Shown: positions 17,534 through 42,810 of the stretch, in pieces
Layout of the letters: each line of letters opens with the position of its first letter
Numbering within the stretch: position 1 is the first letter of the stretch
Assembly: GCA_044339595.1 (NCBI GenBank)
Contig: JBIIVF010000001.1
Span: 3,541 to 67,540, forward strand
From: Bacteroidia bacterium
GTDB lineage: Bacteria; Bacteroidota; Bacteroidia; NS11-12g; UBA9320
Direction: 5' to 3'
DNA: 64,000 nt
The notes under the pieces: generated by a model
Databases searched by the model: none
Seen by the model: only the letters and a program-made list of their open reading frames with translations
What the model was told of the DNA's origin: nothing
Translations under genes and position numbers: made by a program

Positions 17534-18286
17534 TTAATTCGCTGCTTCTGAGGTTTCTTCTACTCCCTCTTCTTCTTTTTGAGTCTCGTCTTTTACCTTT
17601 TTTCGCTCCTGCATTCCTTCAATAATAGCGGAAGAAATAGCTGTAGTAATGATTTCGATTGCTTTTGATGCATCATCATTCCCCGGAATTGCATGGTCAA
17701 CTAAAGTAGGATCAGAATTGGTATCTACTAAGGCAAAAATTGGGATATTCAATTTTTGAGCTTCTGCTACTGCAATGTGTTCGCGTTTAATATCCACAAT
17801 GAACAAGGCTGCAGGAAGACGATTTAATTCTTCTATCCCACTCAATACCCTTTCAAGTTTAGCTTTTTCACGGTCTTTCATCAATCTCTCTTTTTTGTTG
17901 AGATTCATGTAAGTACCATCCAAAGCCATCTTGTCAATGCTTTGCATCTTCTTGATGCTTTTACGAACAGTAGCAAAATTGGTTAACATACCTCCCAACC
18001 AACGCTCGGTTACATACGGCATATTTACATTTCTAGCTTGTTCAGCAACCAACTCCTTGGCTTGCTTCTTCGTAGCCACGAAAAGTATTTTGCGACCTGA
18101 TTTAACAATATTTTTAACCGCAGCCTGCGCTTCTTCAAGCTTGGCAATGGTTTTATTCAGATCAATGATGTGAATTCCGTTCTGCTCCATAAAAATGTAG
18201 GGAGCCATCTTCGGATTCCATTTGCGGGTAAGGTGTCCGTAATGAACACCGGCATCTAAAAGATCTTGTGTGGTTAAGTTTGACAT
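17534..18286 (-). CDS. rpsB: 30S ribosomal protein S2
   Basis: The sequence MSNLTTQDLLDAGVHYGHLTRKWNPKMAPYIF is diagnostic, and a C-terminal acidic tail is present. The start was moved to the internal ATG at 18284-18286, because the longer ORF would overlap rpsI. Confidence 0.9.
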   Translation of the reverse strand: MSNLTTQDLLDAGVHYGHLTRKWNPKMAPYIFMEQNGIHIIDLNKTIAKLEEAQAAVKNIVKSGRKILFVATKKQAKELVAEQARNVNMPYVTERWLGGMLTNFATVRKSIKKMQSIDKMALDGTYMNLNKKERLMKDREKAKLERVLSGIEELNRLPAALFIVDIKREHIAVAEAQKLNIPIFALVDTNSDPTLVDHAIPGNDDASKAIEIITTAISSAIIEGMQERKKVKDETQKEEEGVEETSEAAN

Positions 18287-18299
18287 GAATATTCTGCTG

Positions 18300-18686
18300 T
18301 TAACGTTTGCTGAACTGGAATCTCTTTCTCGCTTTCTTCTGACCTGGCTTCTTACGTTCAACCATTCTTGAGTCACGCGTCATCAATTCCTCTTTTCTCA
18401 ATAAGGGCTTGTACTCAGCATCAATTTCGACGATGGCTTTCGCGATGGCTAATTTTAATGCATTGGCTTGACCTGCAAGTCCACCTCCATTGAGATTTGC
18501 TTTCACGTCATACTGACCTGAAAGTTTACAAACTTCAAATGGTTGGTTTACACTATACTGATGAGACGCCGACGGAAAGTAGGCGTTCAGGTCTTTTTTG
18601 TTGATTTCAAACTTGCCTGTTCCAGGGGTCATATAAACCCTTGCAACTGAAGTTTTCCTGCGACCGGATGTATTGATTAATTCCAT
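18300..18686 (-). CDS. rpsI: 30S ribosomal protein S9
   Basis: The product is 128 aa and ends ...GQKKARKRFQFSKR. Confidence 0.9.
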   Translation of the reverse strand: MELINTSGRRKTSVARVYMTPGTGKFEINKKDLNAYFPSASHQYSVNQPFEVCKLSGQYDVKANLNGGGLAGQANALKLAIAKAIVEIDAEYKPLLRKEELMTRDSRMVERKKPGQKKARKRFQFSKR

Positions 18687-18697
18687 TATATTATAAA

Positions 18698-19141
18698 TCA
18701 GATATCTAATTTTTCAGGTTGTTGAGCTTCATGTGGATGGCTGTTTCCTGCAAATACATGCAGATTACCGAACACCTTACGACCGAGCTTTGTTTTTGGA
18801 AGCATTCCTTTAACGGCTTTTTCAACCAAAAACTCTGGACGCTTCGCCAACATATCATTGGCCTTTACAATGCGCTTTCCACCAGGGTGTCCAGAATAGA
18901 ATTGATATTCTTTATCGGTCATCTTACTGCCTGTTAAGGCAATTTTCTCTGCGTTCAATACGATAACATGGTCACCGCAATCTGCGTTAGGTGTAAATCC
19001 AGGCTTGTTCTTGCCTCTGATAATTTTGGCAATTTCGGAGGTAAATCTACCCAATGTCTTGCCTTCAGCATCGGCCACAAACCATCTTTTTTCAATGGAG
19101 TTTTTGCCGAGCGAAATGGTTTTATAACTTAAAGTATCCAC
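18698..19141 (-). CDS. rplM: 50S ribosomal protein L13
   Basis: The sequence (V/M)DTLSYKTISLGKNSIEKRWFVADAEGKTLGRFTSEIAKIIRGKNKP is diagnostic. A GTG start at 19139-19141 gives a canonical N-terminus, and the longer ATG-initiated ORF adds 21 non-conserved residues. Confidence 0.85.
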   Translation of the reverse strand: MDTLSYKTISLGKNSIEKRWFVADAEGKTLGRFTSEIAKIIRGKNKPGFTPNADCGDHVIVLNAEKIALTGSKMTDKEYQFYSGHPGGKRIVKANDMLAKRPEFLVEKAVKGMLPKTKLGRKVFGNLHVFAGNSHPHEAQQPEKLDI

Positions 19142-19232
19142 TTTTGAATGTTTATTATTTCTAAAAAAGGTCTGCAAAGGTAAGAGATACTTTCTATTTT
19201 GCAAAATGGAATCAAAAGATTTCGGAACAAAT

Positions 19233-22200
19233 CTACCTTATCAGCAACAAAGTGCCTTTTTCTTGTTTCAAAATCGACTTTTTACCCTTGTAATTTAAAA
19301 TATACAGATAAACTCCATTCTGACATGCAGCGCTTTTATAACTGCCATCCCAACCTTCATTTTTATCCATCGAATGAAACACTTTTTCACCCCATCGATT
19401 GTAAATTACCAATTCGTAAAAATTCGTTCCAACCACCAACGGCCTGAAAATTTCATTTTTATTATTTCCATCCGGAGAAAAAGCATTGGGAATGATTGCG
19501 TAAACAGAATCGTTCAAACAAACCGGGAGTGAAAGGCTGTCTGAACACCCTCCGGAATTAAATACGACCAATTTTACGGTATATCTGGATGTATCCGGAG
19601 AATAAATGTGGAATGGGTTGAATGCCGGATCAAAATTTTCTTGTTTACCATCTCCATAAAACCACGTTCCACTCTCGGCACCCTGACTTTGATTGATGAT
19701 TCTTAACTCAGGATTGAAAGGATCCAGACAAAAACCGGTTCTGGGAATGGTTATGAAAGATGCTTTTATTTTTGGATATCCGGGGATGGTGGTGAACGTG
19801 TCGAGAAAACAGCCGGTCACTTGGTTTTTAATGCTTAAGGTGTAACGATTTGAAACGAATGCGGTTAAGCGATAACCTTTAAAAGGTGGAGCTGTGTTCC
19901 AAGTTACCGTGTAAGGATCAGTTGTGCCGGGAGTGACTTCCGCAAACCCCTTTTCCCCATAACATTTAATGGGGCTCGTAAGAATGGCAGCGGTTACAGC
20001 AGGATGCACCACGATGTAAGCAGAATCGGTGGCTTCATTCGAACAACCATCGTTCAACCAAACTTTGTGATAACCGGTAATGGATGGGGTATAAAACAAA
20101 CTATTTCCGGTTTGTCCGGTCGACCAACGGAATGAATAATCCGAAGTGATCCCTCCGCTTCCTTTGGCATCAAGCTGCACTGATCCCCCTTTACAAAGGG
20201 TATCATTGGTGCTCAATGCTTTCACTTTCAATCCAGCCATAACGGTGGCCACGATTGAATCAATTCGGTAACACGTAGACGTGCCATAACGGTAATAAAG
20301 GGTATGGTTTCCCGAACCGGCCATAGAGGGGTTAAACTGATTAATATTGACCCCATTTCCCCAGAAATTTCCTCCTGACGGAGAACCGGTCAAAGAAATG
20401 AGGGTGTCTCTGAAACAATGAACACCCGCCGCACCACTCAACTGCACAATCGGCAAGCCTGTCACGGTAATTCTCACCGAATCTTTACAACCGTTTTTGG
20501 ATAGATATCGGATGATATGAATTCCAACACCGGCTCTTCCCGGGTTAAATACCCCATTCAACGAATCTATGATTCCATTCCCTAAAAATTTGCCCCCGGT
20601 TTCTGCATTCCTGAGCTTAAATGACGGGTCTGCTACGCAAAAACTGGTATCCTTTTGAATATCGCTTTTTGGATATACCAAAAATGTAGTACTATCCAAA
20701 CACCCGTTAAAATCATAGATCAATTTGTGGCTACCGTAACCTGCCAAAGAAGGCGTAAAGTAATACAATGAACTAATCCCTGAACCATTCCAAAGACCTC
20801 CAAATGGTGTTACCTGAACGGAATTGAAATCGAGTAAAATCTGAGGATTCTCAATACAGAAATTTTTATTCTTCACGTAAACGTAGACATTGCGTAAATA
20901 CATGATTTTTTTGGCACTGCAATCACCGTAGATGTATTCAATCGTATCGTTGGTTACCTTACCCACCAAAGCCGGATTATACACTCCCATGGCAGAATCT
21001 GCGACCCCTTTCCCTTTCCAGTATCCGCCGGCCGGAATACCTGGTAACATGGTAAACGAAGGTTGTGATAGACAAATCACTTGATTTCCACGCGCATTGA
21101 TATTTTCAACCGTCATTTTTAAAGTATCACGACATCCGCGCATGGTATAGATGAGGTTTTTGGTGCCAATTCCTGCCGTATTCGTATTAAAAATGCCCAA
21201 ATTGGTATTGATGATTCCTGTGCCACTCCAAGTGCCCCCTTGAGGCGTGAATGACAAGGTGATGTTTCCTGCCGATAAACAAATGGTGTCTGTATCCGGC
21301 ACCTTGATAGAATCAACATTAATTATTTTGTTCGCAGTGCAACCATTCCAGGTATAGGTCACCACATAAATCCCTGACGAATCCGGATTGAAAAGACCTG
21401 CAGCATTGATCTTTGGACCACTCCAGGTACCACCGGCAGGTGAATGGCCTGAAACAAAAAACGGCGACGTTCCCGGGCATGCCGCATTTGGCAATCCTCC
21501 GCTGATGGCTCGAACATCTACAACCACTGTATCAGCACATCCGTTTATCAGGTATAACACGGTATCTCTTCCTGCACCGGCCGAAAAGGGCAAATAATTA
21601 CCGGTGGATGCATTGGTGATCCCTTTACCTTTCCAGGTGCCCCCGACAGGATCTCCACTTAATACAAAGGCACCGCCACTTTGACAAACGGAAGTATCTT
21701 TAGGCGCCAATGGCTTAGGTTTTACTACAATGGTAATGGTATCCGAACCGGGTATCGCTACGCCATCACTGACGGTTAGAATGTAGGTGGTTGTGATCAT
21801 TGGACACACCTTCAAAGGGGGCTTTGCATTGCCCAATCCCTGATTCCATGAATAGGCGTATCTTGTGGAGTCCCCTCCATTCACATCCGCAAAAATATTT
21901 GTGCAACCCCGCTCACAAATGGTGTCTGGTGCCGCTCTTAAGGTTACGTTTATAGGACAATCGGTAATACTAAAAGTTGTATTTGCCTCAAGAATCCAGG
22001 CAGAATCGCATCGATCGTATTTCACACTTCTGAAGCGCAAAGCATAACTACCTCCGCGGTTTAGCCCTGAACTCAGCGTGATTTCAAATGAATCCGTTTC
22101 TCCATTTACACACCCAATGGGAGTTACTTTGCTGATTGCAGGGACGAATGAACCTGACAAAGTGAATGTACTATCATAAATAGAGTCGCATATGAATTTC

Positions 22201-22703
22201 TGGTCCAGTCTAACGCGCAAAACGGAAGTACTGCAACTCACAATCGGTTTTCGAACGAATTTAGGAGAAGGCAGGGGTAAAATCTTTGTTCTCCACTTGG
22301 CCTTCCAGCCAAAACAAGCGACACTTGCATCTGACTGAAAATAAATAGTAAGACAAGAATCAGATGATTTGATCACTCCGGGTGATTTAGTGCCATGATG
22401 TCGGCCTCCTATTTTGGCTGCGAATGTGTCACGTCCATCATAAAATTGCAAAAAATCGACATCTTTTTCCGTACAAAAGCTATCAAATTCTAAGGAAACA
22501 TAATCTCCACCGGGAACACAAACCGAAAATATGAGTCGCTCATTGTGTGCATAATCACCCTTTATAATGCCGAGGTCGCTGTCTGTAAATATTCCCTTAC
22601 AGTCGTAAACCCGGTAGTTTTGCATACTGTAGATATTCTGACCTTGCACATGTGAAAGGAGAATATAGATGAGATGAATACATAAAAAACTAAGCTTACG
22701 CAT
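19233..22703 (-). CDS. Surface protein of 1156 aa with an N-terminal CUB domain and a CHU_C (T9SS type-B) C-terminal domain
   Basis: A signal peptide (MRKLSFLCIHLIYILLSHVQG) is followed by a CUB-like module (GIFTDSDLGIIKGDYAHNERLIFSVCVPGGDYVSLEFDSFCTEKDVDFLQFYDG) and then repeated Ig-like units with GGTW/GG.W motifs. The CHU_C tail is IIPNAFSPDGNNKNEIF...YNRWGEKVFHS...GWDG...GVYLYIL. Confidence 0.8.
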   Translation of the reverse strand: MRKLSFLCIHLIYILLSHVQGQNIYSMQNYRVYDCKGIFTDSDLGIIKGDYAHNERLIFSVCVPGGDYVSLEFDSFCTEKDVDFLQFYDGRDTFAAKIGGRHHGTKSPGVIKSSDSCLTIYFQSDASVACFGWKAKWRTKILPLPSPKFVRKPIVSCSTSVLRVRLDQKFICDSIYDSTFTLSGSFVPAISKVTPIGCVNGETDSFEITLSSGLNRGGSYALRFRSVKYDRCDSAWILEANTTFSITDCPINVTLRAAPDTICERGCTNIFADVNGGDSTRYAYSWNQGLGNAKPPLKVCPMITTTYILTVSDGVAIPGSDTITIVVKPKPLAPKDTSVCQSGGAFVLSGDPVGGTWKGKGITNASTGNYLPFSAGAGRDTVLYLINGCADTVVVDVRAISGGLPNAACPGTSPFFVSGHSPAGGTWSGPKINAAGLFNPDSSGIYVVTYTWNGCTANKIINVDSIKVPDTDTICLSAGNITLSFTPQGGTWSGTGIINTNLGIFNTNTAGIGTKNLIYTMRGCRDTLKMTVENINARGNQVICLSQPSFTMLPGIPAGGYWKGKGVADSAMGVYNPALVGKVTNDTIEYIYGDCSAKKIMYLRNVYVYVKNKNFCIENPQILLDFNSVQVTPFGGLWNGSGISSLYYFTPSLAGYGSHKLIYDFNGCLDSTTFLVYPKSDIQKDTSFCVADPSFKLRNAETGGKFLGNGIIDSLNGVFNPGRAGVGIHIIRYLSKNGCKDSVRITVTGLPIVQLSGAAGVHCFRDTLISLTGSPSGGNFWGNGVNINQFNPSMAGSGNHTLYYRYGTSTCYRIDSIVATVMAGLKVKALSTNDTLCKGGSVQLDAKGSGGITSDYSFRWSTGQTGNSLFYTPSITGYHKVWLNDGCSNEATDSAYIVVHPAVTAAILTSPIKCYGEKGFAEVTPGTTDPYTVTWNTAPPFKGYRLTAFVSNRYTLSIKNQVTGCFLDTFTTIPGYPKIKASFITIPRTGFCLDPFNPELRIINQSQGAESGTWFYGDGKQENFDPAFNPFHIYSPDTSRYTVKLVVFNSGGCSDSLSLPVCLNDSVYAIIPNAFSPDGNNKNEIFRPLVVGTNFYELVIYNRWGEKVFHSMDKNEGWDGSYKSAACQNGVYLYILNYKGKKSILKQEKGTLLLIR

Positions 22704-23150
22704 CTATTTTTTGATGGTGATTTCTTTAGTCTGAATATAATTGCTCCAATTACCTGCGCGATCTTTCATTCTTATATCATATTGTGTGCGCTCGTCTCCG
22801 CCGGAACCTAACAAGAAAGTATTGCGCAAACGCAACTGCATAGAACCTTTAATTTTAATGTTGCTGCCAATAGGTGCCATGGGTGGCACATAATAAAAGT
22901 CGGGATTGGTCAATCGGGCATCCTGGACTTCGAGCAATAGGATATCCGGGTTTTTATGTCCAAGATCACCATCCCCATCTTCATACTCGAAAGTAACAAT
23001 GACACTATCCGTAAACTGATTTACAATTTCAGGAGTAATGCTGATGTATCGGATATTCGGTATCACATTGTTTGAGGGTAAAACTGCGTCATCTGCACTG
23101 CAACCCCAAACAGAAATTGAAATCATCACGATATAAAATACCCTCTTCAT
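22704..23150 (-). CDS. Hypothetical lipoprotein of 148 aa
   Basis: The product has a lipoprotein signal (MKRVFYIVMISISVWGCSADD). Its stop codon abuts the start codon of the CHU_C gene, and its start overlaps the upstream gene by 4 nt. Confidence 0.5.
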   Translation of the reverse strand: MKRVFYIVMISISVWGCSADDAVLPSNNVIPNIRYISITPEIVNQFTDSVIVTFEYEDGDGDLGHKNPDILLLEVQDARLTNPDFYYVPPMAPIGSNIKIKGSMQLRLRNTFLLGSGGDERTQYDIRMKDRAGNWSNYIQTKEITIKK

Positions 23151-24097
23151 TGCAGTTTAATTGCACAGTAACGTTTAGCGCTGAACAGACTGTTATCATT
23201 GGGTAATTGGGAGGGGGCACTCACACCATCTCCTATTTTTGTTCTTATCCATAAAACATCTCCGGCCATTGCAATCTGTCGGGTATCAATGGTGATTTTG
23301 TGATGGTAATCAACCATTTCCTTGTAAAAACCAAGGGCTGATTTCGGGGTAGAAACAAATTCTATATTGTATTCCTTCAACGAATCGTAAACATTGGCCA
23401 TTTTAGAAAAACTGGCCTTCAGACCGGTCAGATTGCCCACCGGTGTTTTATCGTCGGCAAATGAAATCCAGACTTCAACCGTTCCGGCACCTGAATTTAT
23501 TTCCATGAAATTATAATGACTTTGGCGGTTGACCAAGTTGCCATTTTGATATAATTGCATTCCTTGCAATTGAACAGGAAAATTCACCGCTTCCGGCCCT
23601 TTCCCGTTGATATCGAGCGCCCCATTCTCTATCCACTTTTTTATATTGTTGATGTATTCATCTTTTTTAAATTTCCAGTCACTGCCCGGCTCGGTAACCA
23701 ATGGCATGATGCCCGAATTATTGTTCAAATCTTCGGTCAGTCTTTTCAAGATCATAGAAGTAGCTGCATTTCCAGGAGTCACCCTTGAAGTAAACGGATT
23801 GAGCTCATCATTTTTAATGATGGGTTGATTGACCAAGGTGTTGTATGTACTGGTAATGCTTCTGAAATCCGGCTCGAAATTGCCATCATGACAACCGCTA
23901 TTGGCACAGGTTGGCTTGAATATATTCTTGTGCAATCCGGCGATCGACTCAGGATCAGGCGTCGTATCTACACCGTCTATACCGATGTAAACATTGTTAT
24001 CCTTCTGATTGTAAGGGTTCGATGGCTCTGTGCCCTTCTCAGAACATGCAGATAGCATCGCAAACAGGCCGATTCCGATCAGTAACAGATTTCTCAT
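23147..24097 (-). CDS. Hypothetical lipoprotein of 316 aa with a C-x4-C-H motif (FKPTCANSGCHDG)
   Basis: The product has a lipoprotein signal (LFAMLSACSEKG). The Cys/His motif lies at nt 23888-23908. It overlaps the DUF1501 gene by 4 nt. Confidence 0.5.
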   Translation of the reverse strand: MRNLLLIGIGLFAMLSACSEKGTEPSNPYNQKDNNVYIGIDGVDTTPDPESIAGLHKNIFKPTCANSGCHDGNFEPDFRSITSTYNTLVNQPIIKNDELNPFTSRVTPGNAATSMILKRLTEDLNNNSGIMPLVTEPGSDWKFKKDEYINNIKKWIENGALDINGKGPEAVNFPVQLQGMQLYQNGNLVNRQSHYNFMEINSGAGTVEVWISFADDKTPVGNLTGLKASFSKMANVYDSLKEYNIEFVSTPKSALGFYKEMVDYHHKITIDTRQIAMAGDVLWIRTKIGDGVSAPSQLPNDNSLFSAKRYCAIKLQ

Positions 24098-25440
24098 ATT
24101 CTGTCAAATAAAGATCGACTCGCGCCGTCAATAATACCGGCATTGGCCACATCATCTTTAATACCGAAAATTTCTGCGATGGTCAGTACATTGTCTGTGG
24201 CTAAACCAACCGGACTTGTGTCATTCCCCAACATCAGGTTGGTGGGGACATTAGGACCTGCCATGGAAGTGAAAATGCGCTGTGTATTTGCATCTCCGCT
24301 GTGGTCAAATGCAAACCAGTCATTTTCATCCTGAATTGGATTAGGTCTAAGATTACGACCGCATTCAGGAGTAGCAATCATGATGGTTTTACCGGCCATT
24401 TCAGGGATTTGTGTTTGAATGTAATTCCATAAAAATCCAACAGCGTGATCTGCTCTATGGAGTGCTCTCAAATAACCGGAAAAGCTCGAATGACAACCAT
24501 CTACGTTACTCATATTAACTACGGTAATTTTCGGTTTAAACCATTTCATCACTTCCGCAGCATAGGAAACATTCAACAAATCGCTGTTGTCATTTACAGG
24601 AGGTGAGGCGATGCCGCCGGATTGTTGTCGCTGAAATATTGACTTTATGAACTCCTTTATATTATTTTTCTCCTCTTCTGTATTGGTGATATTTGGAATC
24701 TCTCCATTTTTTACCCTGAAAACATTATCTAAAAATTGCTTCATTTTATAAATGGGCTCCATTTCTTCTTGAGGATGATAAACTTTCGCATTAGATAACA
24801 CTTCTCTCCCCTGTTGGCCAAAGGTGATCAGTGGTGCGAAGAAATTAGCTCCATATTCGAGACCATAGGCACTGTGATTACTGCAATTGAGCAGCGGCAC
24901 TGAACTGCCAATGGTGTTGCCAATAAACCAGGCATCTGTAGCTTTGAACCCTCTATGACGACGCAGATATTCAAATATAGTTGGATTTTGGGGTCTCACT
25001 TTTAAACCTTGTGTTGCGGCCCGCGTGCCGGTGAGCAATGATGTCAAGCCACCATAATGCCCTCCGTTCACAGCCCTGACCTCACGAAAAAGGGTCCCCT
25101 GCTTCTGAAGCGTAGTATTCAATAATTTTGGTATCGGCCTGCTAAAAGGCACATCGCCCGGAGGTGAAGTTCCGTAGACAATTTTATTGGTTGGAGCTTC
25201 ACCATCCAGCATGTTGTACATGATGTTACCGGCATATTCAAGCCCCTGACTATCATCTAAATAACGTTGCAAAATGCTCTCTTGATGTCTAACACCACCG
25301 GCAAATAAGACATACACAACGTGATCCGCCAAGGGCGTTCCGGTTTTAGCAAATAATCGCCCTGAAGGAAGCAAATAAGGGAATGCCAAACTTCCGGCGG
25401 CCAACAGGGCTGATTTTTGGATAAACTCTTTTCTTTTCAT
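24094..25440 (-). CDS. DUF1501 family protein, a sulfatase/alkaline-phosphatase-like protein that is probably Tat-exported
   Basis: The N-terminus (MKRKEFIQKSALLAAGSLAFPYL...) is followed by a VVYVLFAGGVRHQES block that resembles the DUF1501 'RVIfLfmsGGpSq' motif. A C-terminal FDHSGD...MAGPNV block is also present. This assignment is based on motifs only. Confidence 0.6.
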   Translation of the reverse strand: MKRKEFIQKSALLAAGSLAFPYLLPSGRLFAKTGTPLADHVVYVLFAGGVRHQESILQRYLDDSQGLEYAGNIMYNMLDGEAPTNKIVYGTSPPGDVPFSRPIPKLLNTTLQKQGTLFREVRAVNGGHYGGLTSLLTGTRAATQGLKVRPQNPTIFEYLRRHRGFKATDAWFIGNTIGSSVPLLNCSNHSAYGLEYGANFFAPLITFGQQGREVLSNAKVYHPQEEMEPIYKMKQFLDNVFRVKNGEIPNITNTEEEKNNIKEFIKSIFQRQQSGGIASPPVNDNSDLLNVSYAAEVMKWFKPKITVVNMSNVDGCHSSFSGYLRALHRADHAVGFLWNYIQTQIPEMAGKTIMIATPECGRNLRPNPIQDENDWFAFDHSGDANTQRIFTSMAGPNVPTNLMLGNDTSPVGLATDNVLTIAEIFGIKDDVANAGIIDGASRSLFDRI

Positions 25441-25450
25441 GTTGCCCGGT

Positions 25451-25957
25451 TTAATAAAACTGATATTCTTCTGATGCCGAAAATGCTGTATAAACCAATT
25501 CTGTGGTCACATTAGGATTGGCTTCAATATAGTTTCTAAAAAAAGTAACTTCCAGCTCACTTGGATCTCGTACAAAAAATCTCCGGTAGGTCTTTTTGAT
25601 AAATGCATCAATATCTGCCCGCATTTCGATATCGGTAGGAATTTGCCGACTTGGAGAATTCATGTAATTGCTGATGATTAATTCATAAGCCAAAGCACGA
25701 TCTCCAATAGAATAAATAACATTTTCAGTCTTTACCAACTCATTCACTGAAATAGGTTTTTGGAGTAAGTTGGTGGAAAGGATGGAAATATATTGAGCAT
25801 CACTTTTGGCCTTTCCCTTTTTGATAAACTGACTGTTTACCGGAGTCTCATTCACTCCATAATCTGCGTTGATCAGTTCTTTTTTACATCCCGCCAAAAC
25901 GGACATATAAAAAAGTAATCCTACCCATATGACTGACTTAGAAATTTGCATATTCAT
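25451..25957 (-). CDS. Hypothetical lipoprotein of 168 aa
   Basis: The product has a lipoprotein signal (LFYMSVLAGCKKE). It overlaps the upstream lipoprotein gene by 20 nt. Confidence 0.45.
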   Translation of the reverse strand: MNMQISKSVIWVGLLFYMSVLAGCKKELINADYGVNETPVNSQFIKKGKAKSDAQYISILSTNLLQKPISVNELVKTENVIYSIGDRALAYELIISNYMNSPSRQIPTDIEMRADIDAFIKKTYRRFFVRDPSELEVTFFRNYIEANPNVTTELVYTAFSASEEYQFY

Positions 25958-26879
25958 CCGTTACCAAAATTTTTTGTTGCAGGGCCGGTAAATCTCCGTT
26001 GGATTTGAATTCTTTGAACAATACAGCCGTCTCTTCAGTTCTTGGTTCTCTTCCCAGTAAATTCTGAAATACCCATTTTATTATTCCTTCATAAAACTCG
26101 TCGCTGTGGCAGAGCAATAGACAATACTCCCTCTTATTGGAAGCATAACTACCCATCAAAGCTCCCAATTTATTGGTTTCGATGATAGAATAGGCTGTTT
26201 CAAATTCTATTTTGGTGGGGAAACGATAAAACAAATCGTCAAAAGATGCATTCACAAAATTGAACGTATTCATGTTGATGTTGTCGTATACATTGTTGTC
26301 GAGCATCCGCGCATACATTTCATTCAGCGTAATGCTGCCAAAACGATACTCATCTTTTGAAGTTACAATTCTGCCATTTCTCGCCATTTGCTCCAGTGCC
26401 TGAAAAACTCGAACAGAATCTCCTTCTAATCTGGCAATGGTTAAAGAAAATTGTGCCAATCCTACGTGACGGGTAAACTCACCGTCTGCCGCCCCTTCGC
26501 ATAAGCTTGATTTCACCATATCGTAAATCCGCTGGTAGTATGCCTTTTTGTAAGAAGAATCTCCTTCTACAAAGGTGTCACTGGATTGTAAACGTGTGAT
26601 TAGATTGAGTCTCACATCTTTTGAAAGCTTTCCATCTTTGAGTCTTGCTACTTCAAGATTCATTTCATTTTGAGTTGGAACCCTGCCCAATAAATCGATG
26701 TACAAGCGGTTTACGTAGTTTTCTACTTTAACGGTTGGCACAGTACCCGGCAGCAGGGCTTGATTGCCATCATACGTTTTGTTTACCACTTCTGTTTTGC
26801 AAGCGCTAAAAAATGACAGGAGCAAAAGCAATCCAAAATAAATCCGAAAACGGGCAAATTTCAATAAAAACTGATCCAT
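25938..26879 (-). CDS. Hypothetical lipoprotein of 313 aa with repeated 'LLGR.PT..E' motifs
   Basis: The product has a lipoprotein signal (LLLLSFFSACKTE). The motifs YIDLLGRVPTQNEM and FQNLLGREPRTEET are reminiscent of DUF1549/DUF1800-type repeats. Confidence 0.45.
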   Translation of the reverse strand: MDQFLLKFARFRIYFGLLLLLSFFSACKTEVVNKTYDGNQALLPGTVPTVKVENYVNRLYIDLLGRVPTQNEMNLEVARLKDGKLSKDVRLNLITRLQSSDTFVEGDSSYKKAYYQRIYDMVKSSLCEGAADGEFTRHVGLAQFSLTIARLEGDSVRVFQALEQMARNGRIVTSKDEYRFGSITLNEMYARMLDNNVYDNINMNTFNFVNASFDDLFYRFPTKIEFETAYSIIETNKLGALMGSYASNKREYCLLLCHSDEFYEGIIKWVFQNLLGREPRTEETAVLFKEFKSNGDLPALQQKILVTDEYANF

Positions 26880-26950
26880 TAAAGTGTTGTCGATAACAAA
26901 TCTAAGTAATTACAACGACAATTACAAGTCGTGTTTTTTATTGCTTTCGT

Positions 26951-28264
26951 CTAATTATTTTGAAAAAAGTTGCACGCATGTCGGTCATACCAATCCTTTA
27001 AGAAGAAATAGTGATCGTCCTGATACTTTTTATCTGTCTGGGCTAAATCCCATGGGATGAACCTAAAATTCCCCATCTTATCGCAATGAAGATATAAAAA
27101 CTTAAATCCACTGTTAATGAGTACTTCTCCGGAGGGTGTTTTGGCCAACTCAAGGGTGGCATAACCGGTTAAGTGGCTCCAGCTAAAAATATCATACGCA
27201 ACAAAATCCCCTAAGGAATAATACACGATTCCCCGAACTTCTTTTCCATCAGATTTGCGGTGATAATGAACCACTTCAGAAGGCTGAAGATTATGCGGAT
27301 GATGGATAAAAATAACGTCCGGCTCCCCGAATTCAAAAATCTCCAATACCCGATTTCTGATATGTTCAGAGGGATAGCATTGATAGGCATTGCCCATATG
27401 GAGCGAGGCAATCACCACCTCTGCCCCTTGACTTTTAGCGGCTTTGAGTGCATCAAAAAGTGGATGAATATCGCTCAAAGGATCATTTAATCTCAAATGG
27501 CAGATAATATCCATCGCCTCATCATCCGGATTCACCCGATTGAGTGAATAGGTGTAATTCACAATCCCGATGTTAAACCCATTTTTTTGGAGGATTACGA
27601 AGTCATTTTCCCCCTTATGACGACGCGCTCCGGAGAACGGAATTTTACGACTGTCAAGAAATTGCATCGTCTCTTTTAACGAGCTTGTGCCGGCATCGAG
27701 CATGTGGTTGTTCGCCAGACTGAGATAATCGTAGCTATAACTCCCATGGGCTGTAAATACATCCAGCAATGCTCTACTACCATTGAACTGCATGTCGTTG
27801 AGCATTAATTCAGGAACATACGAAGGTTTTTTAAAAAAATCCATGGGCGTCTCCAGATTAGCCATGGTAATATCACTTCCAAAAAAGTCCTCCCCACATA
27901 AAGACCAAAGTTCATCGGATCGACCATTTATCATCACTTCATAAGGCATCAGGTCTCCGCCTGCATGAATCATCAACCGATCTGCTTGTCCGGTGATTTC
28001 TTTTAAAGAGCGTTGACTGTCAGCAATTTGTCCGGACTCATGTGGCTTACCGTAATATTTAGCCCCCAAATAAAGGGCATCTTTCCAGGTAAAGTAGGCC
28101 GGATTTTCTTCAAAGCTTTTCAGTGGATAACCCCATCTCGATTTATTAAAATAGGCGATTAATTTAAACAATGCCTTCAATGGAATTAACAACAATCTGC
28201 CCAAGAAACTCCAACCACGCACAGGGTAGTATTGATGAATTGATTTTTTTTGCACTGTTTTCAA
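26951..28264 (-). CDS. CapA/PgsA-family metallophosphoesterase with an N-terminal membrane anchor
   Basis: Metallophosphatase motifs are present (LANNHMLDAG, GAEVVIASLHMGNAY, YSLGDFV). The protein is 437 aa. Confidence 0.7.
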   Translation of the reverse strand: MKTVQKKSIHQYYPVRGWSFLGRLLLIPLKALFKLIAYFNKSRWGYPLKSFEENPAYFTWKDALYLGAKYYGKPHESGQIADSQRSLKEITGQADRLMIHAGGDLMPYEVMINGRSDELWSLCGEDFFGSDITMANLETPMDFFKKPSYVPELMLNDMQFNGSRALLDVFTAHGSYSYDYLSLANNHMLDAGTSSLKETMQFLDSRKIPFSGARRHKGENDFVILQKNGFNIGIVNYTYSLNRVNPDDEAMDIICHLRLNDPLSDIHPLFDALKAAKSQGAEVVIASLHMGNAYQCYPSEHIRNRVLEIFEFGEPDVIFIHHPHNLQPSEVVHYHRKSDGKEVRGIVYYSLGDFVAYDIFSWSHLTGYATLELAKTPSGEVLINSGFKFLYLHCDKMGNFRFIPWDLAQTDKKYQDDHYFFLKDWYDRHACNFFQNN

Positions 28265-28412: not shown

Positions 28413-28526
28413 AATTCATACAACTTGTCTTCTACAGTGAACACCTCTGAATAATTTTTCAACGATTTTAAAAGGATTTTTGGATTGGAACGATTTTTAA
28501 TATATCTTCGTAAAACGAATCAGTGT

Positions 28527-28877
28527 ATGAATAAAGGAGTACTATTAATGATTGTGATGATGGGAGCTTTGACTTTCGCCGCCCTACCCGGCAAAGCGAT
28601 TGGTCCGATTTACCCTTCAGGCACTGAAGCTCAGAGCATTAAGCTTGGGCAGAACTATCCTAATCCGGCTAACAGCAAAACTGTAATCGACTTATCTTTT
28701 ACTTCTTCTGAAGCAACTTTAACCATTTACAATGTTCTTGGTAAAGTGGTGGACGAATTTTCAGTGATTGACAAGCGTTTCATTTTGGATGTAACCAACT
28801 ATCCTGAAGGTGTGTATCTCTATACACTCGAAGCAGACGGAGAAAAACTTACCCGTCGCATGACTGTGAGAAAATAA
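28527..28877 (+). CDS. Very small (116 aa) protein made of a signal peptide plus a T9SS type-A C-terminal sorting domain, with only about 15 aa of 'cargo'
   Basis: The signal peptide is MNKGVLLMIVMMGALTFAALPGKA. The remainder (NYPNPANSKTVIDLSF...LTIYNVLGKVV...YPEGVYLYTLEADGEKLTRRMTVRK) covers all the conserved T9SS C-terminal domain motifs. Confidence 0.65.
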   Translation: MNKGVLLMIVMMGALTFAALPGKAIGPIYPSGTEAQSIKLGQNYPNPANSKTVIDLSFTSSEATLTIYNVLGKVVDEFSVIDKRFILDVTNYPEGVYLYTLEADGEKLTRRMTVRK

Positions 28878-37667: not shown

Positions 37668-39296
37668 TTATTTGTTCAAGAAAATCTTGTGTGTAGAAAC
37701 ACCGTTTGAAGTGCTGATTTTCACAAGGTACAAACCATTGTTCAATGAAGTCAAATCGGCTACTACTCTGTTAGATCCCATGAAGAACTCTTCGTTGTTC
37801 ACGATTGCGTAAACGGTACGTCCTGACAAGTCAGAAATTTCCATGTTTACCATTTGGTTGTCAGTAAGGTCGAAATCAACCTGAACTGTTCCGTTGGTAG
37901 GGTTAGGATATACGTTCAAGTTCAACACAGCGAAGTTAGAAACTGATCCTGGATTTGGTGGGATAGAATCATACTGAGCATTGTTTGGATCGAAGTTCGT
38001 CCAACCGGCCATCCAATTATCTGTTTCACCAAAAGCACCGATGTAAGACGTTGCAGTAAAGTTGGTGTTATTTAATTTAGCATTGGCAAATGAAGCACCA
38101 CTTAAAGCAGGTGAACCGGCCATTGGTCTGAAATCAGGATTGCTGTAATTGAAAGCGTCTTTCAACATTACCGAAGAATTCAAGGCATATCTGCGGTTGT
38201 TGTTTCCGGTACTGTCATAGAAAGCAGTAAAATCGGCAGTTACTACTCCACCTTGTCCGCTAAAATAAGTCTTATTTCCCGCTACGATATTGTTTTGCAA
38301 GAAACCAACATTGGTTCTGAAGTTGTTGAATGTGGTTGCTCCATCCATTCTGACACCTTCTCTCCAGCCCATAATAACTGAATTGAAGATAGAAATTTCA
38401 TTGTTTCTTCTCAAGTGGGCACCTCTTCCGTGCAAAGAAGCTCTTACGTCTGAAGTATCTTTAAACGCACCGATTACGGTCATATTTGAAAACACCGCTG
38501 CAGTTTTAGGAGTTTCATTGGTTCCACCTGCATCATTGTCCACTTCAAAACCATTTTTGGTAGACACGTCAGCAACATTAGGATCTGCCAATGACACACC
38601 AAATTGTACATTCCCTCTAAATCCCTGATCTACGTCGAAATCGTCATCATTGGTTTTGAAAGCCACCAGGTGCTTGGCGTTTACGGCTCCACCGAACCAT
38701 TCGAAAGCGTCATCATTGTTAAATGAACACTGCACATAGTCAATGGTCGTTCCATTTCCTACAGCACACATAGTCAATGAATTCAATTCGCGATCTTGTT
38801 CAAAAGGAAAACCGGCAAACTCAATGCGACAATATTTCAAAGTACCACTGTTATCTGTATCATCCGATCCACCGTAGTTACCGGGTATTACACCCCCTTC
38901 ATAGGTTGGATTAACTTTGTTGGCTTTGGCATTTCCAAAAATCACAATCCCTCCCCAATCTCCATAGTCTCTTTGACCTTTAGGTTCACCGGAAGTAAAC
39001 ACGATTGGCTTTTCTTTGGTTCCGATAGCAACCAATTTTCCACCTTTGTCAACCAAAAGACAAGTTGCATTGGATTGATCCGGAGCTTTTCCTCCTTTTA
39101 CGACAGTTCCAGGCTCAACAGTCAGGGTTACACCGTTCTGAATGCGCACAATACCGCTTAATACATAAATTTTGTCGGCAGTCCAGGTTGCGCTGGCTGT
39201 GATGTTGGAAGTCACATTAACCACCTGTTTTGCTGTTTGAGATTGAACGAACTGAGCACTCAGAATCGTTAGCATCATTAGGAATAATTTTTTCAT
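37668..39296 (-). CDS. Secreted parallel beta-helix-like protein with a T9SS type-A C-terminal domain
   Basis: A signal peptide (MKKLFLMMLTILSAQFVQSQ) is followed by repetitive Gly/Asn-rich beta-strand modules. The C-terminus (LNLNVYPNPTNGTVQVDFDL...GLYLVKISTSNGVSTHKIFLNK) matches the T9SS C-terminal domain. Confidence 0.75.
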   Translation of the reverse strand: MKKLFLMMLTILSAQFVQSQTAKQVVNVTSNITASATWTADKIYVLSGIVRIQNGVTLTVEPGTVVKGGKAPDQSNATCLLVDKGGKLVAIGTKEKPIVFTSGEPKGQRDYGDWGGIVIFGNAKANKVNPTYEGGVIPGNYGGSDDTDNSGTLKYCRIEFAGFPFEQDRELNSLTMCAVGNGTTIDYVQCSFNNDDAFEWFGGAVNAKHLVAFKTNDDDFDVDQGFRGNVQFGVSLADPNVADVSTKNGFEVDNDAGGTNETPKTAAVFSNMTVIGAFKDTSDVRASLHGRGAHLRRNNEISIFNSVIMGWREGVRMDGATTFNNFRTNVGFLQNNIVAGNKTYFSGQGGVVTADFTAFYDSTGNNNRRYALNSSVMLKDAFNYSNPDFRPMAGSPALSGASFANAKLNNTNFTATSYIGAFGETDNWMAGWTNFDPNNAQYDSIPPNPGSVSNFAVLNLNVYPNPTNGTVQVDFDLTDNQMVNMEISDLSGRTVYAIVNNEEFFMGSNRVVADLTSLNNGLYLVKISTSNGVSTHKIFLNK

Positions 39297-42769: not shown

Positions 42770-42810
42770 CATCAGTTAAATTACGCAAAGCTCACTTTTT
42801 GCGTGTTGAA

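Follow-up and report, generated by a model that had tools for sequence, protein, structure and literature searches.

The locus studied here is probably related to the canonical PSCyt/DUF1501 system, a two-gene system (a PSCyt1-PSCyt2-PSD1 protein plus a DUF1501 protein) of Planctomycetota, Verrucomicrobiota, and some Bacteroidota. In genuine systems of this kind, the DUF1501 gene adjoins the PSCyt1-bearing gene (PMC3542564), and the reference loci compared here show the same. In the window –the whole 64-kb stretch of DNA analysed– we consider it probable that five genes, A to E, are a distant, disassembled relative of that system, with their own promoter and a usually co-transcribed sixth gene, F.

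Gene layout and conservation

A first-pass annotation had described seven minus-strand genes running head to tail, and the ORF list of the window places all seven where it did:

26951..28264, minus strand: 437-aa PGA_cap (CapA-like metallophosphoesterase) gene (ORF; PF09587 6e-37)
25938..26879, minus strand: gene A, 313 aa, first in the conserved module (ORF)
25451..25957, minus strand: gene B, 168 aa (ORF)
24094..25440, minus strand: gene C, 448 aa (ORF)
23147..24097, minus strand: gene D, 316 aa (ORF)
22704..23150, minus strand: gene E, 148 aa (ORF)
19233..22703, minus strand: gene F, 1156 aa (ORF)

The Pfam match to PGA_cap agrees with the CapA-like label of the 437-aa product. The junction sizes also held on the ORF coordinates, and three of them were read directly in the sequence: a 71-nt gap separates the CapA-like gene from A, A and B overlap by 20 nt, B and C lie 10 nt apart, C/D and D/E each share a 4-nt ATGA overlap, and the TAG stop of E abuts the ATG of F. 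The tight spacing is not a product of chance, since it recurs in the gene calls of relatives, and the A/B overlap is conserved, since the MNM-x-I start of B is conserved in its family alignment. Gene-neighbourhood comparison confirmed that the cluster is co-directional, tightly spaced, and conserved among relatives.

The order A-B-C-D-E was kept in 84/84 related loci from metagenomes and species genomes. Module carriers, found in at least 489 species genomes, comprise hundreds of uncultured Bacteroidota species. E was found in all module versions. F followed E, collinear and on the same strand, in every main-clade locus reaching far enough, whereas divergent versions (L089 and L091/L092) presented the five-gene core without F, with order and spacing unchanged. 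The expectation that the lipoproteins always flank a CUB/CHU_C gene holds for the main clade, in loci that are long enough, but not for these divergent versions. Across the 84 loci, identity was highest for C (60-89 %) and lowest for F (31-68 %), and C's neighbours went down to 31-45 %. The conserved unit is the five genes A-E, smaller than the seven first proposed, and F is a frequent but dispensable associate.

A CapA-like homolog was upstream of A in only 2/84 loci (L005 and L007, the two closest relatives), and L001 and L004 have other, unrelated genes upstream of A. The CapA-like gene is a neighbour outside the conserved module. Its proposed membership of the unit is contradicted by this synteny and by a promoter-like motif between it and A:

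26897..26904, minus strand: TAGATTTG, match to the Bacteroidota -7 promoter motif TAnnTTTG (sequence read)

The motif ends 17 nt upstream of the start codon of A. Of 50 distinct loci, 23 have TAnnTTTG 5-70 nt upstream of A, a 13-fold enrichment over random windows (3.5 %), and TAGATTTG is likely the module promoter, an action predicted from its sequence.

Proteins of the module

No A-E protein scored above any Pfam or NCBIfam threshold, and the Pfam search for DUF1501, DUF1549, DUF1553, DUF1800, and PSCyt, the families to which the locus had been linked, placed no ORF above threshold. C gave zero matches to any Pfam or NCBIfam family, DUF1501 included, even at E <= 1. In HHalign comparisons, computed without secondary-structure scoring and with small reference profiles (mostly 4-11 sequences; PSCyt about 44, about 40 of them from one tight orthologous group), cross-compared unrelated pairs stayed at or below 2.6 %, and DUF1501 was the sole full-length match of C (94.2 %, E = 1.2e-7, 378 columns, vs. 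102 columns for Sulfatase and 74 for Phosphodiest). The PSCyt-associated DUF1501 subtype scored 50 % and the DUF1800-associated one 1.5 %. C keeps the DUF1501 constellation (H128, D314-x2-H317, D331, E359-x-G-R362, and D379-H380), and one of its distant relatives, P0274, is above the DUF1501 threshold. On these comparisons, C belongs to the alkaline-phosphatase superfamily as a divergent protein of DUF1501 type, probably a metalloprotein, with DUF1501 as nearest family. The earlier DUF1501 assignment of the 448-aa ORF stands by fold and profile-profile comparisons only, not by a direct Pfam or NCBIfam match.

25348..25440, minus strand: C residues 1-31, twin-arginine-type leader (consensus MKRREFIKK, window copy MKRKEFIQK)

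This leader can be aligned to the Tat leader of DUF1501 and is followed by a nearly invariant PYILPSGRLFA segment in the family alignment. RR is present in 69/86 family members, and the window's own C has RK. The Tat-type leader proposed for the 448-aa protein is present, although as RK and not RR in this copy, and C would presumably be exported by Tat.

In D, a cytochrome-c-like domain of PSCyt1 type precedes an Ig-like beta-sandwich (pLDDT of the predicted structure, 81.7). D has 421 homologs, with a Pfam domain in 0/421.

23567..23965, minus strand: D residues 45-177, domain with PSCyt1 (planctomycete cytochrome c) homology, by HHalign
23888..23908, minus strand: C64-x4-C69-H70, putative covalent heme-c attachment site and proximal histidine, invariant in the family
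23702..23707, minus strand: M131-P132, putative distal methionine ligand, invariant, aligned with the MP of PSCyt1 domains
23153..23572, minus strand: D residues 176-315, Ig/CBM-like beta-sandwich

When compared with Pfam-validated PSCyt1-PSCyt2-PSD1 proteins over their PSCyt1 region, D scored 96.5 % (HHalign, E = 1e-9, 107 columns), and the negative controls DUF1501 and DUF1800 scored 0.1 %. The residue-level alignment pairs K-P...C-H, VPG..S..R, MP, and WI..GA. The C-x4-C-H already noticed in the 316-aa lipoprotein is present, invariant, and inside the PSCyt1-homologous domain, and it may bind heme. Its C-H aligns with the C-H of the PSCyt1 CxxCH, as M-P does with that of genuine PSCyt1 domains. 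In the most divergent modules (CGNVQCH, CAVSGCH, and CAVGGCH), spacing, cysteines, and histidine are kept and the inner residues vary, as would be expected if the motif ligates heme. Moreover, other bacteria are known to attach heme c at CX4CH (e.g. PMC11492766). All this weighs against reading the motif as a disulfide or a site for another metal, and D as a degenerate, non-redox PSCyt1 descendant without electron transfer. We regard that alternative as somewhat unlikely, even though the motif departs from CxxCH, 0/32 scanned family members match a Pfam cytochrome model, and neither the PDB profile search nor the fold searches returned a cytochrome. No cytochrome-c maturation gene was found in ten other window ORFs, which is uninformative because only these ten were scanned.

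A and B are paralogous lipoproteins, made of helical units of the DUF4214/phycobilisome-linker type.

26571..26732, minus strand: A residues 50-103, first LLGRxP unit (DUF4214 22.0 bits, cut-off 23.2; PSCyt2 E = 0.085)
25941..26429, minus strand: A residues 151-313, phycobilisome-linker-like, second LLGRxP motif inside (PDB profile alignments)

In the A family alignment (42 sequences), all Pfam hits were sub-threshold: DUF4214 in 27/42, PBS_linker in 21/42 (best 6.9e-9), PSCyt2 in 16/42, and PSD1 in 3/42; no unrelated Pfam family appeared in more than two of the 42 members scanned. The PDB profile search found the phycobilisome linkers ApcH (9e-5) and ApcE (1.8e-4), aligned over A residues ~151-222 and 254-300, and Pfam placed PBS_linker_poly on residues 266-312. 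Both LLGRxP motifs reported in the 313-aa protein exist (residues 62-72 and 273-283), but they are DUF4214/phycobilisome-linker-type units and not the DUF1549/DUF1800 sign they were taken for. Likeness to DUF1549/DUF1553 remains at the motif level only (HHalign 16-24 %), and there is no similarity to DUF1800 (<0.3 %). Residues 50-103 resemble two domain ends, the N-terminal one of PSCyt2/DUF1549 and the C-terminal one of PSD1/DUF1553: A39-103 matches PSCyt2 positions 29-88 at 24 % (E = 8e-4), and A52-89 the PSD1 C-terminus at 19 %. Such a short, weak match could merely reflect a widespread DUF4214-like helical unit. B carries one DUF4214-type unit at its C-terminus (sub-threshold Pfam match in 20/34 members) and is a paralogue of part of A (HHalign of A124-236 vs. 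B78-147, 83 %). Neither B nor E matched canonical PSCyt/DUF1501 components.

E has no relatives in Pfam or PDB. F comprises a signal peptide, a CUB domain, seven Cys-rich repeats of ~70 aa (GGxWxGxGI, residues 354-777), a PKD-like domain, and a CHU_C sorting domain.

22944..22985, minus strand: E residues 56-69, Y-E-D-G-D-G-D-L-G...P-D, conserved acidic loop (family alignment)
22296..22556, minus strand: F residues 50-136, CUB domain (PF00431, 36 bits, cut-off 21.4, 9.5e-9)
19236..19496, minus strand: F residues 1070-1156, CHU_C / T9SS type-B C-terminal sorting domain (PF13585 6e-15; TIGR04131 39.6 bits, cut-off 35, 4.4e-10)

In the acidic loop of E, Y56, D58, G61, and G64 are invariant and D62 and D69 nearly so; the motif points to a possible Ca2+ site. 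The 1156-aa product is, as first annotated, a T9SS type-B cargo with a CUB domain, both above the Pfam or NCBIfam cut-offs, and CUB was also called on the F orthologues in L001 and L087.

Cellular location and working model

Tat delivers to the periplasm. Four lipobox lipoproteins had been called, and the family alignments keep all four lipobox cysteines (A C27, B C24, D C18, and E C17) without exception. Under the published definition of the Bacteroidota lipoprotein export signal, LES (PMC5080379), few proteins have a strict motif, 5/67 for A, 3/82 for B, and 9/65 for D; the window's E has an LES-like C-S-A-D-D. The signal sequences suggest that the core A-E is periplasmic and not on the surface. 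The earlier term 'surface-localised' does not suit the core, as most A, B, and D members have no LES and the leader of C is of the Tat type. Its T9SS sorting domain (Pfam, NCBIfam) marks F as a surface protein.

The working model builds on what was observed: how the genes are ordered and conserved, how the proteins fold, which remote homologies they have, and which residues they keep. Its mechanism is conjecture, because the literature holds no experimental function even for the canonical PSCyt/DUF1501 system. C would be folded and metal-loaded in the cytoplasm before Tat export, and then held at the membrane on the periplasmic side by the lipoproteins A, B, D, and E, if these form a complex. 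With heme attached, the D domain may exchange electrons with the metal site of C or redox-gate it, and C could act on a substrate that is anionic or carries an ester and that probably derives from a glycan. Where present, F would supply or bind material at the cell surface.

Rival readings and the PSCyt/DUF1501 system

The locus could also be an ordinary nutrient-scavenging operon, with C as one more phospho- or sulfo-esterase of the alkaline-phosphatase superfamily, D as a generic small cytochrome-like or metal-binding lipoprotein, and the PSCyt/DUF1501 likeness as a superfamily coincidence. The wider halo of C relatives gives this some weight: its profile scored 98.0 % against Sulfatase and 98.5 % against DUF1501, in Pfam its members match Phosphodiest (17), Sulfatase (11), and Metalloenzyme more often than DUF1501 (5), and very distant relatives stand alone beside hydrolases, with A, B, D, and E all missing. 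Besides, the canonical system has nothing equivalent to A, B, and E. However, a coincidence would have to cover two independent matches, C to DUF1501 and D to PSCyt1, in genes that are adjacent, with a 4-nt overlap, as in the canonical pairing. C aligns end to end with DUF1501 only, shares with it the DUF1501-specific E-x-G-R...D-H and the Tat leader, and its sequence lacks the sulfatase nucleophile motif C/S-x-P-x-R. Its conservation relative to its neighbours is also atypical for accessory scavenging enzymes, and we find this reading unlikely.

It is less credible still that A-E are accessory factors processing, anchoring, or assembling F. F does come right after E on the same strand in all main-clade loci long enough, with abutting stop and start codons in the window. 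The usual partner of type-B T9SS cargo is PorP/SprF, and its absence beside F in 51/54 loci means that F might need another anchoring system. But A-E persist unchanged in order and spacing where F is missing, the conservation of F (lowest) and C (highest) is the opposite of what this reading expects, and the genome is rich in T9SS cargo genes, the 64-kb window alone having four besides F. Least probable of all is the seven-gene surface capture-and-hydrolysis machine first suggested, including the CapA-like phosphoesterase and with the 313-aa lipoprotein as DUF1549/DUF1800 equivalent. The gene layout is as described, the LLGRxP motifs are real, A has sub-threshold PSCyt2 matches, the window's E is LES-like, and F is on the surface. 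Yet synteny and the DUF1800 results contradict it: the CapA-like gene is rarely syntenic and is split from A by the promoter-like motif, and the A motifs fit DUF4214/PBS-linker better. Most A, B, and D without an export signal, Tat-directed C, and a dispensable F also speak against it.

We favour A-E as a new split variant of the PSCyt/DUF1501 module, whose biochemical function we infer. The split Bacteroidota variant that the first-pass annotation envisaged is retained in that C is nearest to DUF1501 and D is homologous to PSCyt1, but A-E remain below the Pfam thresholds. The module offers a simpler form in which to study the uncharacterised 'planctomycete cytochrome + DUF1501' system. C adjoins D, as the DUF1501 gene adjoins the PSCyt1-bearing gene in the canonical pair. 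The PSCyt1-type domain sits on a separate lipoprotein, with C-x4-C-H where canonical PSCyt1 has CxxCH, and A and B stand in place of the large helical PSCyt2/PSD1 part.

Gene order and conservation of the operon

At the organisational level, we found seven minus-strand ORFs with the junctions that the first-pass annotation had described. All junctions were taken from the ORF coordinates, and three of them were also read directly.

Genes of the cluster, in their order on the minus strand
G0, minus strand, 437 aa: CapA-like protein; 71-nt gap before A
A, minus strand, 313 aa: lipoprotein; 20-nt overlap with B
B, minus strand, 168 aa: lipoprotein; 10-nt gap before C
C, minus strand, 448 aa: DUF1501-like protein; ATGA overlap with D
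D, minus strand, 316 aa: PSCyt1-like lipoprotein; ATGA overlap with E
E, minus strand, 148 aa: small lipoprotein; its TAG stop abuts the ATG of F
F, 19233-22703, minus strand, 1156 aa: CUB/CHU_C cargo protein of the type IX secretion system (T9SS), type B

Direct Pfam and NCBIfam scans of all seven proteins retrieved nothing above threshold for A to E; the only matches above threshold were PGA_cap in G0, and CUB, CHU_C, and the type-B sorting domain in F. When one genome per species was scanned, relatives were present in at least 489 species genomes, and the best 80 of these matches all came from uncultured Bacteroidota MAGs. Every named cluster member that we sampled was a MAG 'hypothetical protein'.

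The genes A-B-C-D-E-F were collinear on one strand in 84 of 84 loci, wherever the contig extends far enough, and a single copy was seen in the window and in every related locus.

Identity to the window protein across the 84 loci
A: 34-76 %
B: 39-76 %
C: 60-89 %
D: 33-62 %
E: 32-66 %
F: 31-68 %

The strong conservation of C (60-89 % identity versus neighbours that go down to 31-45 %) suggests a strongly constrained activity, which could be ecologically important in lakes and oceans.

G0 carries a PGA_cap/CapA domain (PF09587; domain match 6e-37) and had been counted as an operon member, a view that the neighbourhoods do not bear out. A homolog lies upstream of A in 2 of the 84 loci, those of the two closest relatives only. 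The 71-nt gap upstream of A contains TAGATTTG, a match to TAnnTTTG, the Bacteroidota -7 promoter motif. Of 50 distinct loci, 23 have this motif 5-70 nt ahead of A, versus 3.5 % of random windows. Because of the two loci only and the promoter motif between G0 and A, we regard G0 as a neighbour, not a member, and the CapA-like gene was ruled out as a part of the module. Scans for sigma-70 promoters and intrinsic terminators gave counts equal to the shuffled expectation and are uninformative for a Bacteroidota genome.

Adhesin F had been proposed as an integral part of the operon. The A to F neighbourhood is indeed collinear in the 84 loci, but three more divergent loci (L089, L091, and L092) keep the A-E order and the tight spacing without a CUB/CHU_C gene after them. 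In another locus, L087, F is kept and a PorP/SprF gene is added. From the F-less loci, we take five genes as the invariant core and F as a frequent, lineage-associated addition. Since the window holds four other T9SS cargo genes, adjacency to one of them in a single genome means little; it is cross-species synteny that carries weight for the association of F.

Five T9SS cargo genes in 64 kb is a very high density; three are type-A (Por_Secre_tail) and two are type-B (CHU_C).

T9SS cargo genes in the window
87-3635, plus strand: T9SS cargo gene
9926-14518, plus strand: T9SS cargo gene
19233-22703, minus strand: F, type-B
28485-28877, plus strand: 130-aa ORF with Por_Secre_tail
37668-39296, minus strand: T9SS cargo gene

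Flanked by the CapA-like gene and mgtE and read from the opposite strand, the 130-aa ORF consists of a signal peptide and Por_Secre_tail (2.8e-12, residues 58-127) with little else. By its domain content, it would be a minimal type-A T9SS cargo with almost no passenger domain.

Some neighbouring genes deserve a remark on their annotation. In the region 19100-19232 (minus strand), the listed TTG start of rplM (19204) is probably too far upstream. Another TAnnTTTG -7-type motif, TACCTTTG, lies at 19175-19182, and a GTG followed by DTLSYKT is found near 19140; thus, a separate promoter for rplM probably lies about 50 nt past the stop codon of F. With its listed GTG start, the rpsB ORF (17534-18376, minus strand) shares 77 nt with the end of rpsI (18300-18686, minus strand) and gains an arginine-rich extension at its N-terminus; translation probably starts at the internal Met that precedes SNLTTQDLL. 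The sole tRNA gene in the window is tRNA-Leu(CAG) at 42688-42770 (plus strand).

Relationship of C and D to DUF1501 and PSCyt1

The family of C comprises more than 1227 homologs of about 446 aa each, all named 'hypothetical' and none with a Pfam domain, and an exhaustive profile search from C yielded 776 representative relatives. Searches of C against PDB sequences, with the single sequence and with the profile, gave nothing significant. The first-pass annotation had likened the 448-aa protein to DUF1501 (PF07394; gathering threshold 27 bits). This did not hold in Pfam, where C had no DUF1501 match even at E <= 1, but it was supported by profile-profile comparison (HHalign) and by shared residues. 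Among the distant relatives of C, P0296 scored 26.4 bits against DUF1501 (below the threshold) and P0274 scored 28.6 bits (above it).

Pfam families matched by 40 distant relatives of C
Phosphodiest: 17/40
Sulfatase: 11/40
Metalloenzyme: 8/40
DUF1501: 5/40, one above threshold

Since the assignment through distant relatives was ambiguous, we compared the candidate families head to head with HHalign, using as references 11 DUF1501 proteins (six PSCyt-associated and five DUF1800-associated), six Phosphodiest, and four Sulfatase. The reference alignments are small, and all references are real annotated plasmid genes, each validated with Pfam. The DUF1501 and sulfatase references were found on annotated plasmids through bait sequences that did not themselves enter the comparison; the DUF1800 and PSCyt reference genes are neighbours of the retrieved DUF1501 genes, and the Phosphodiest references were retrieved with a real protein from one of the fetched loci (L085).

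HHalign comparison of the C profile with reference families
All 11 DUF1501: 94.2 %, E 1.2e-7, 378 columns, from leader to C-terminus
PSCyt-associated DUF1501 only: 50 %, E 1.6e-4, 358 columns
DUF1800-associated DUF1501 only: 1.5 %, E 0.034, 84 columns
Sulfatase: 45 %, E 2.2e-4, 102 columns
Phosphodiest: 24 %, E 8e-4, 74 columns

For scale, the two DUF1501 subtypes matched each other at 97.5 % over only 121 columns. With the profile of the halo, the wider set of distant relatives of C, DUF1501 reached 98.5 % versus 98.0 % for Sulfatase; on these profiles, the DUF1501 margin over Sulfatase is clear for the C family and small for the halo. Sulfatase and Phosphodiest have in their favour the larger number of Pfam matches among the 40 distant relatives, and the C profile aligns with them over 102 and 74 columns. 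The sulfatase motif C/S-x-P-x-R was absent from the C sequence, and the residues of C follow DUF1501. C has the alkaline-phosphatase/sulfatase-superfamily alpha/beta fold of DUF1501, and G48, H128, D314/H317, E359-C-G-R362, and D379-H380 coincide with positions conserved in at least 80 % of the 11 DUF1501 proteins. D314-x2-H317 (V-D-G-C-H) corresponds to the W-D-x-H of DUF1501, and E359-x-G-R362 to its E-F-G-R; the DUF1501 signature further comprises a GG after beta-1, (N/S)H, and D-H. Both also have in common the GG that comes after strand one, an acidic residue five positions on from it, D331, and D416, and the RR leader of the C family (R-K in the window copy) lines up with theirs. Moreover, D, the PSCyt1-like gene, overlaps the end of C by 4 nt, so that C has the pairing of a DUF1501 gene. 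The very distant relatives P0296 and P0244 lie in neighbourhoods that lack A, B, D, or E partners and offer no hint of function. We conclude that C most plausibly forms a divergent branch whose nearest relatives are the PSCyt-associated DUF1501 proteins and which the present Pfam model does not cover.

Enzymes of the alkaline-phosphatase superfamily carry a Ser, Thr, or formylglycine nucleophile. In C, H128 follows the core strand 115-122, at the start of the helix 130-137, and may occupy the position of the superfamily nucleophile.

Residues 21-31 of C (25348-25380, minus strand), PYILPSGRLFA after the hydrophobic core of the leader, hardly vary within the family. Since signal peptides that are cleaved off tend to be poorly conserved, this segment may remain in mature C, perhaps serving as an anchor that stays uncleaved or as a docking peptide.

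For D, the link with PSCyt1 (PF07635) appears in profile-profile comparison only. None of 32 D-family members matched PSCyt1 in the Pfam scan, even at E <= 10, and its N-terminal domain gave nothing significant against PDB sequences with either the single sequence or the profile. With HHalign, the D profile matched the PSCyt1 region of genuine PSCyt1-PSCyt2-PSD1 proteins at 96.5 % (E 1e-9, 107 columns, D 45-177) and the whole proteins at 93-94 %, versus 0.1 % for the DUF1501 and DUF1800 controls. The direct alignment runs from the helix into the heme motif through C-H, (I/V)VPG..S..R, and M-P to W-I-x-x-G-A. M131-P132 and W155-I156..G159-A160 of D are invariant and aligned with the distal Met and the C-terminal helix of PSCyt1.

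The C-x4-C-H of D, already pointed out in the first-pass annotation, is invariant in the family and takes the place of CxxCH, which is absent: D has two extra residues between the cysteines relative to PSCyt1, and the C-H parts of the two motifs line up. The most divergent modules have CGNVQCH, CAVSGCH, or CAVGGCH at this place. The spacing, both cysteines, and the histidine are fixed while the inner residues vary, which fits a putative heme-attachment site. In other bacteria, CX4CH is recognised as a non-canonical heme-c motif (e.g. PMC11492766), and we infer that D may bind heme.

Lipoproteins A, B, and E, surface protein F, and localisation

The LLGRxPTxxE motifs of A had been said to recall DUF1549 and DUF1800. 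By family-wide matches, they appear to belong to helical units of the DUF4214/phycobilisome-linker type.

Pfam families matched below threshold by 42 A-family members
DUF4214: 27/42, best 2.2e-5
PBS_linker_poly: 21/42, best 6.9e-9
PSCyt2: 16/42, best 1.2e-4
PSD1: 3/42, best 0.024
Any unrelated Pfam family: at most 2/42

The window copies of A (22.0 bits) and B (21.5 bits) were just below the DUF4214 cut-off of 23.2, and the A profile matched the linker domains of ApcH (9e-5) and ApcE (1.8e-4) in the PDB. Both proteins have the unit x-Y-x-x-L-L-G-R-x-P...(S/T)-x-E-Y. B has one DUF4214-type unit, found below threshold in 20 of 34 members, and is paralogous to the middle of A (83 %, HHalign).

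The likeness to DUF1549 survived as a weak, short match. Window A scored 13.2 bits against PSCyt2/DUF1549 (PF07583, about 209 residues; cut-off 29.8), and in HHalign A reached 24 % at profile positions 29-88 only, about the first 60 residues (B, 1.4 %). Against PSD1/DUF1553 (PF07587, about 244 residues), A reached 16-19 % over the last 38-40 residues or so. This likeness is a short helical unit that is widespread elsewhere too; thus, an identity of A with DUF1549/DUF1553 is not established. DUF1800 (PF08811, about 420 residues) fell away altogether: the profiles of A, B, D, and E gave at most 0.3 % against five Pfam-validated DUF1800 proteins in HHalign, and it was ruled out as the identity of A and B.

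HHalign also aligned residues 181-274 of A with residues 203-288 of D (window ~26058-26339 and ~23234-23491) at 49.5 % (E 1.7e-4, 85 columns). The D side of this match is a beta-sandwich region, which is unexpected if A is all-helical.

E had no relatives in the family Pfam scan or in the searches of PDB sequences with the single sequence and the profile. Its acidic loop, Y-x-D-x-(D/N)-G-D-(L/I)-G...D-P-D, is invariant and may be a calcium site.

F carries a CUB domain (PF00431; 36 bits, cut-off 21.4, 9.5e-9, residues 50-136) that is kept in orthologues, CHU_C (PF13585; 55.6 bits, cut-off 27, 6e-15), and a type-B sorting domain (TIGR04131; 39.6 bits, cut-off 35). The usual partner of a type-B T9SS cargo gene is a PorP/SprF gene. 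There was none next to F or next to the other type-B gene of the window. Of 54 eligible loci, only 3 had PorP/SprF immediately after F, as did L004 in addition, and on this count the gene was ruled out as a part of the module.

Residues ~330-850 of F (20154-21716, minus strand) form seven tandem repeats of ~70 aa marked by GGxWxGxGI (residues 354, 424, 489, 559, 635, 703, and 777), for which no Pfam repeat model matched at E <= 1. The whole protein has 36 cysteines.

Regarding localisation, the lipobox cysteines noticed in the first-pass annotation are invariant in their families (A C27, B C24, D C18, and E C17), with lipobox-like residues at -3 to -1. The C leader is twin-arginine-like and aligns with the DUF1501 leader; in the family, it reads MKRREFIKK by consensus; 69 of 86 members have RR, and the window copy has R-K. 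In Bacteroidota, the lipoprotein export signal (LES) has been defined experimentally as C-X-K-(D/E)2, or a polar residue followed by (D/E)2 (PMC5080379).

Strict LES matches per family
A: 5/67
B: 3/82
D: 9/65
E: 19/67

Among the window lipoproteins, only E has an LES-like sequence (C-S-A-D-D). The column consensus C-K-K-(D/E)-(E/D) is LES-like and would favour surface exposure of A, B, and D, but strict per-sequence matches are a minority, so that surface exposure of these three was rejected. The surface localisation of the core that had been suggested before is thus not supported: given the Tat-like C leader and the few strict LES in A, B, D, and E, the A-E core most likely works in the periplasm, tethered to a membrane. 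F is the sole surface protein of the operon.

Proposed working and comparison with known systems

From gene order, conservation, fold, remote homologies, and conserved residues, we infer the following working. C would be loaded with metal in the cytoplasm, at a site formed by H128, D314, H317, D379, and H380, and exported folded by Tat. In the periplasm, it would join the lipoproteins A, B, D, and E, where the heme of D may exchange electrons with the metal site of C or gate it. The substrate would be an anionic or ester-bearing compound, probably glycan-derived, and F would act at the surface in the lineages that have it.

The split PSCyt/DUF1501 variant proposed in the first-pass annotation gained support from the profile-profile and residue-level tests, but no Pfam threshold was passed by A-E. 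On balance, we favour reading the operon as a distant form of the PSCyt/DUF1501 module that is split into separate proteins and has a periplasmic core of five genes; it probably works like, and descends from, that module. The specific redox-coupled chemistry of C and D seems unlikely. A fuller version is at the lower end of that estimate and rather improbable: a minimal modular PSCyt/DUF1501 system, in which a mono-heme C-x4-C-H lipoprotein is the obligate redox partner of an alkaline-phosphatase-fold metalloenzyme with a possible His at the nucleophile site, together with phycobilisome-linker-like scaffolds and tied to a T9SS protein. If true, it would bring redox-dependent, not purely hydrolytic, chemistry into the alkaline-phosphatase superfamily, and a small split system would reveal the role of hundreds of planctomycete and verrucomicrobial PSCyt/DUF1501 paralogues.

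In Planctomycetota and Verrucomicrobiota, DUF1501 and PSCyt/PSD rank with the largest families whose function is unknown, and the operon would carry the system into uncultured aquatic Bacteroidota, a large group in which at least 489 species genomes have it. Its presumed parts are separate small proteins: the enzyme C, the heme and Ig-like D, the helical scaffolds A and B, and the acidic-loop E. This split arrangement would show which parts are indispensable and offers small, expressible targets for heme, metal, and activity assays. Thus, it could be a simpler entry point to a long-standing unknown system, and it defines five protein families that have no current Pfam or NCBIfam model.

Several known systems resemble single parts of the operon. 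In Proteobacteria, DUF1800 + DUF1501 pairs (fetched from Novosphingobium, Phyllobacterium, Vibrio, Burkholderia, and Rhizobium plasmids) also place a DUF1501-type Tat protein after the gene of a helical protein, but they have no cytochrome-like partner, and C matched their DUF1501 subtype alone at 1.5 %. Compared with solved structures of the alkaline-phosphatase superfamily (PhoK/SPAP 5xwi, S1 sulfatases, NPP/ENPP, and phosphonate monoester hydrolase), C has 12-18 % identity and, unlike them, a Tat-like leader and an obligate cytochrome-like neighbour. A and B share their unit with DUF4214 and phycobilisome linkers (PF13946 / PF00427), but they are lipoproteins of a non-photosynthetic bacterium and have no phycobiliprotein partner. 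F is like SprB-like type-B T9SS cargo of Flavobacteriia and Cytophagia in its sorting domain, Sec signal, and repetitive Ig-like modules, and unlike the usual cargo in its N-terminal CUB, its place in an operon with periplasmic proteins, and the lack of an adjacent PorP/SprF gene here and in 51 of 54 loci.

The Phosphodiest control genes (L103-L107) lie inside ebo-type clusters (eboA/C/E, inositol-3-phosphate synthase, and prenyltransferase). On Haloferax volcanii pHV3, the gene after the Phosphodiest control is annotated as 'PVC-type heme-binding CxxCH protein'.

The closest comparison is the canonical system, in which DUF1501 is paired with PSCyt1/PSCyt2/PSD1. Kamneva et al. 2012 described it bioinformatically and proposed membrane targeting and electron transport (PMC3542564). 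The literature that we searched contained no functional study of DUF1501, PSCyt, DUF1549, DUF1553, or DUF4214. The system occurs in Planctomycetota, Verrucomicrobiota, and Lentisphaerota, and on plasmids of Bacteroidota and Gammaproteobacteria (Kamneva et al. 2012, PMC3542564; He et al. 2017, PMC5615132).

In four canonical loci from Bacteroidota and Catenovulum plasmids (L094 5307-11970, L095 3467-10798, L096 2554-9727, and L097 1-7266), a second protein stands beside the pair. It has a PSCyt1 domain and leucine-rich repeats in L094 and L095, also with a DUF2231 membrane domain in Chondrinema; for L096 and L097, the annotation says no more than c-type cytochrome domain protein. A 6-bladed beta-propeller gene is often present in these loci. 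The Catenovulum loci have GH115/GH98 genes or one for a fucose permease as neighbours, in keeping with a role linked to glycans.

Our operon differs from the canonical system in that four small lipoproteins replace the PSCyt1-PSCyt2-PSD1 protein of about 800-1100 aa. The cytochrome domain is on its own lipoprotein, D, with C-x4-C-H and not CxxCH, and DUF4214-type lipoproteins stand in place of the PSCyt2/PSD1 body, with a helical unit of about 40-60 residues as the only likeness. There is an extra small lipoprotein, E, and in most cases a T9SS cargo gene follows. In planctomycete genomes, the PSCyt/DUF1501 proteins form large paralogous families, whereas here only one copy was seen per locus, and none of the A-E proteins passes the Pfam models. 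Like the canonical system, the operon has a protein of the alkaline-phosphatase superfamily with a Tat-like leader (H / D-x-H / E-x-G-R / D-H) beside a PSCyt1-type gene, Ig/CBM-like modules on the cytochrome-bearing protein, and products that are all predicted to be extracytoplasmic. In the genuine systems that we fetched from Singulisphaera, Haliscomenobacter, Chondrinema, and Catenovulum, DUF1501 is directly beside the PSCyt protein. Since this adjacency is reproduced by C and D together with the listed differences, we class the operon outside the present Pfam families and as alike in its working to the PSCyt/DUF1501 module.
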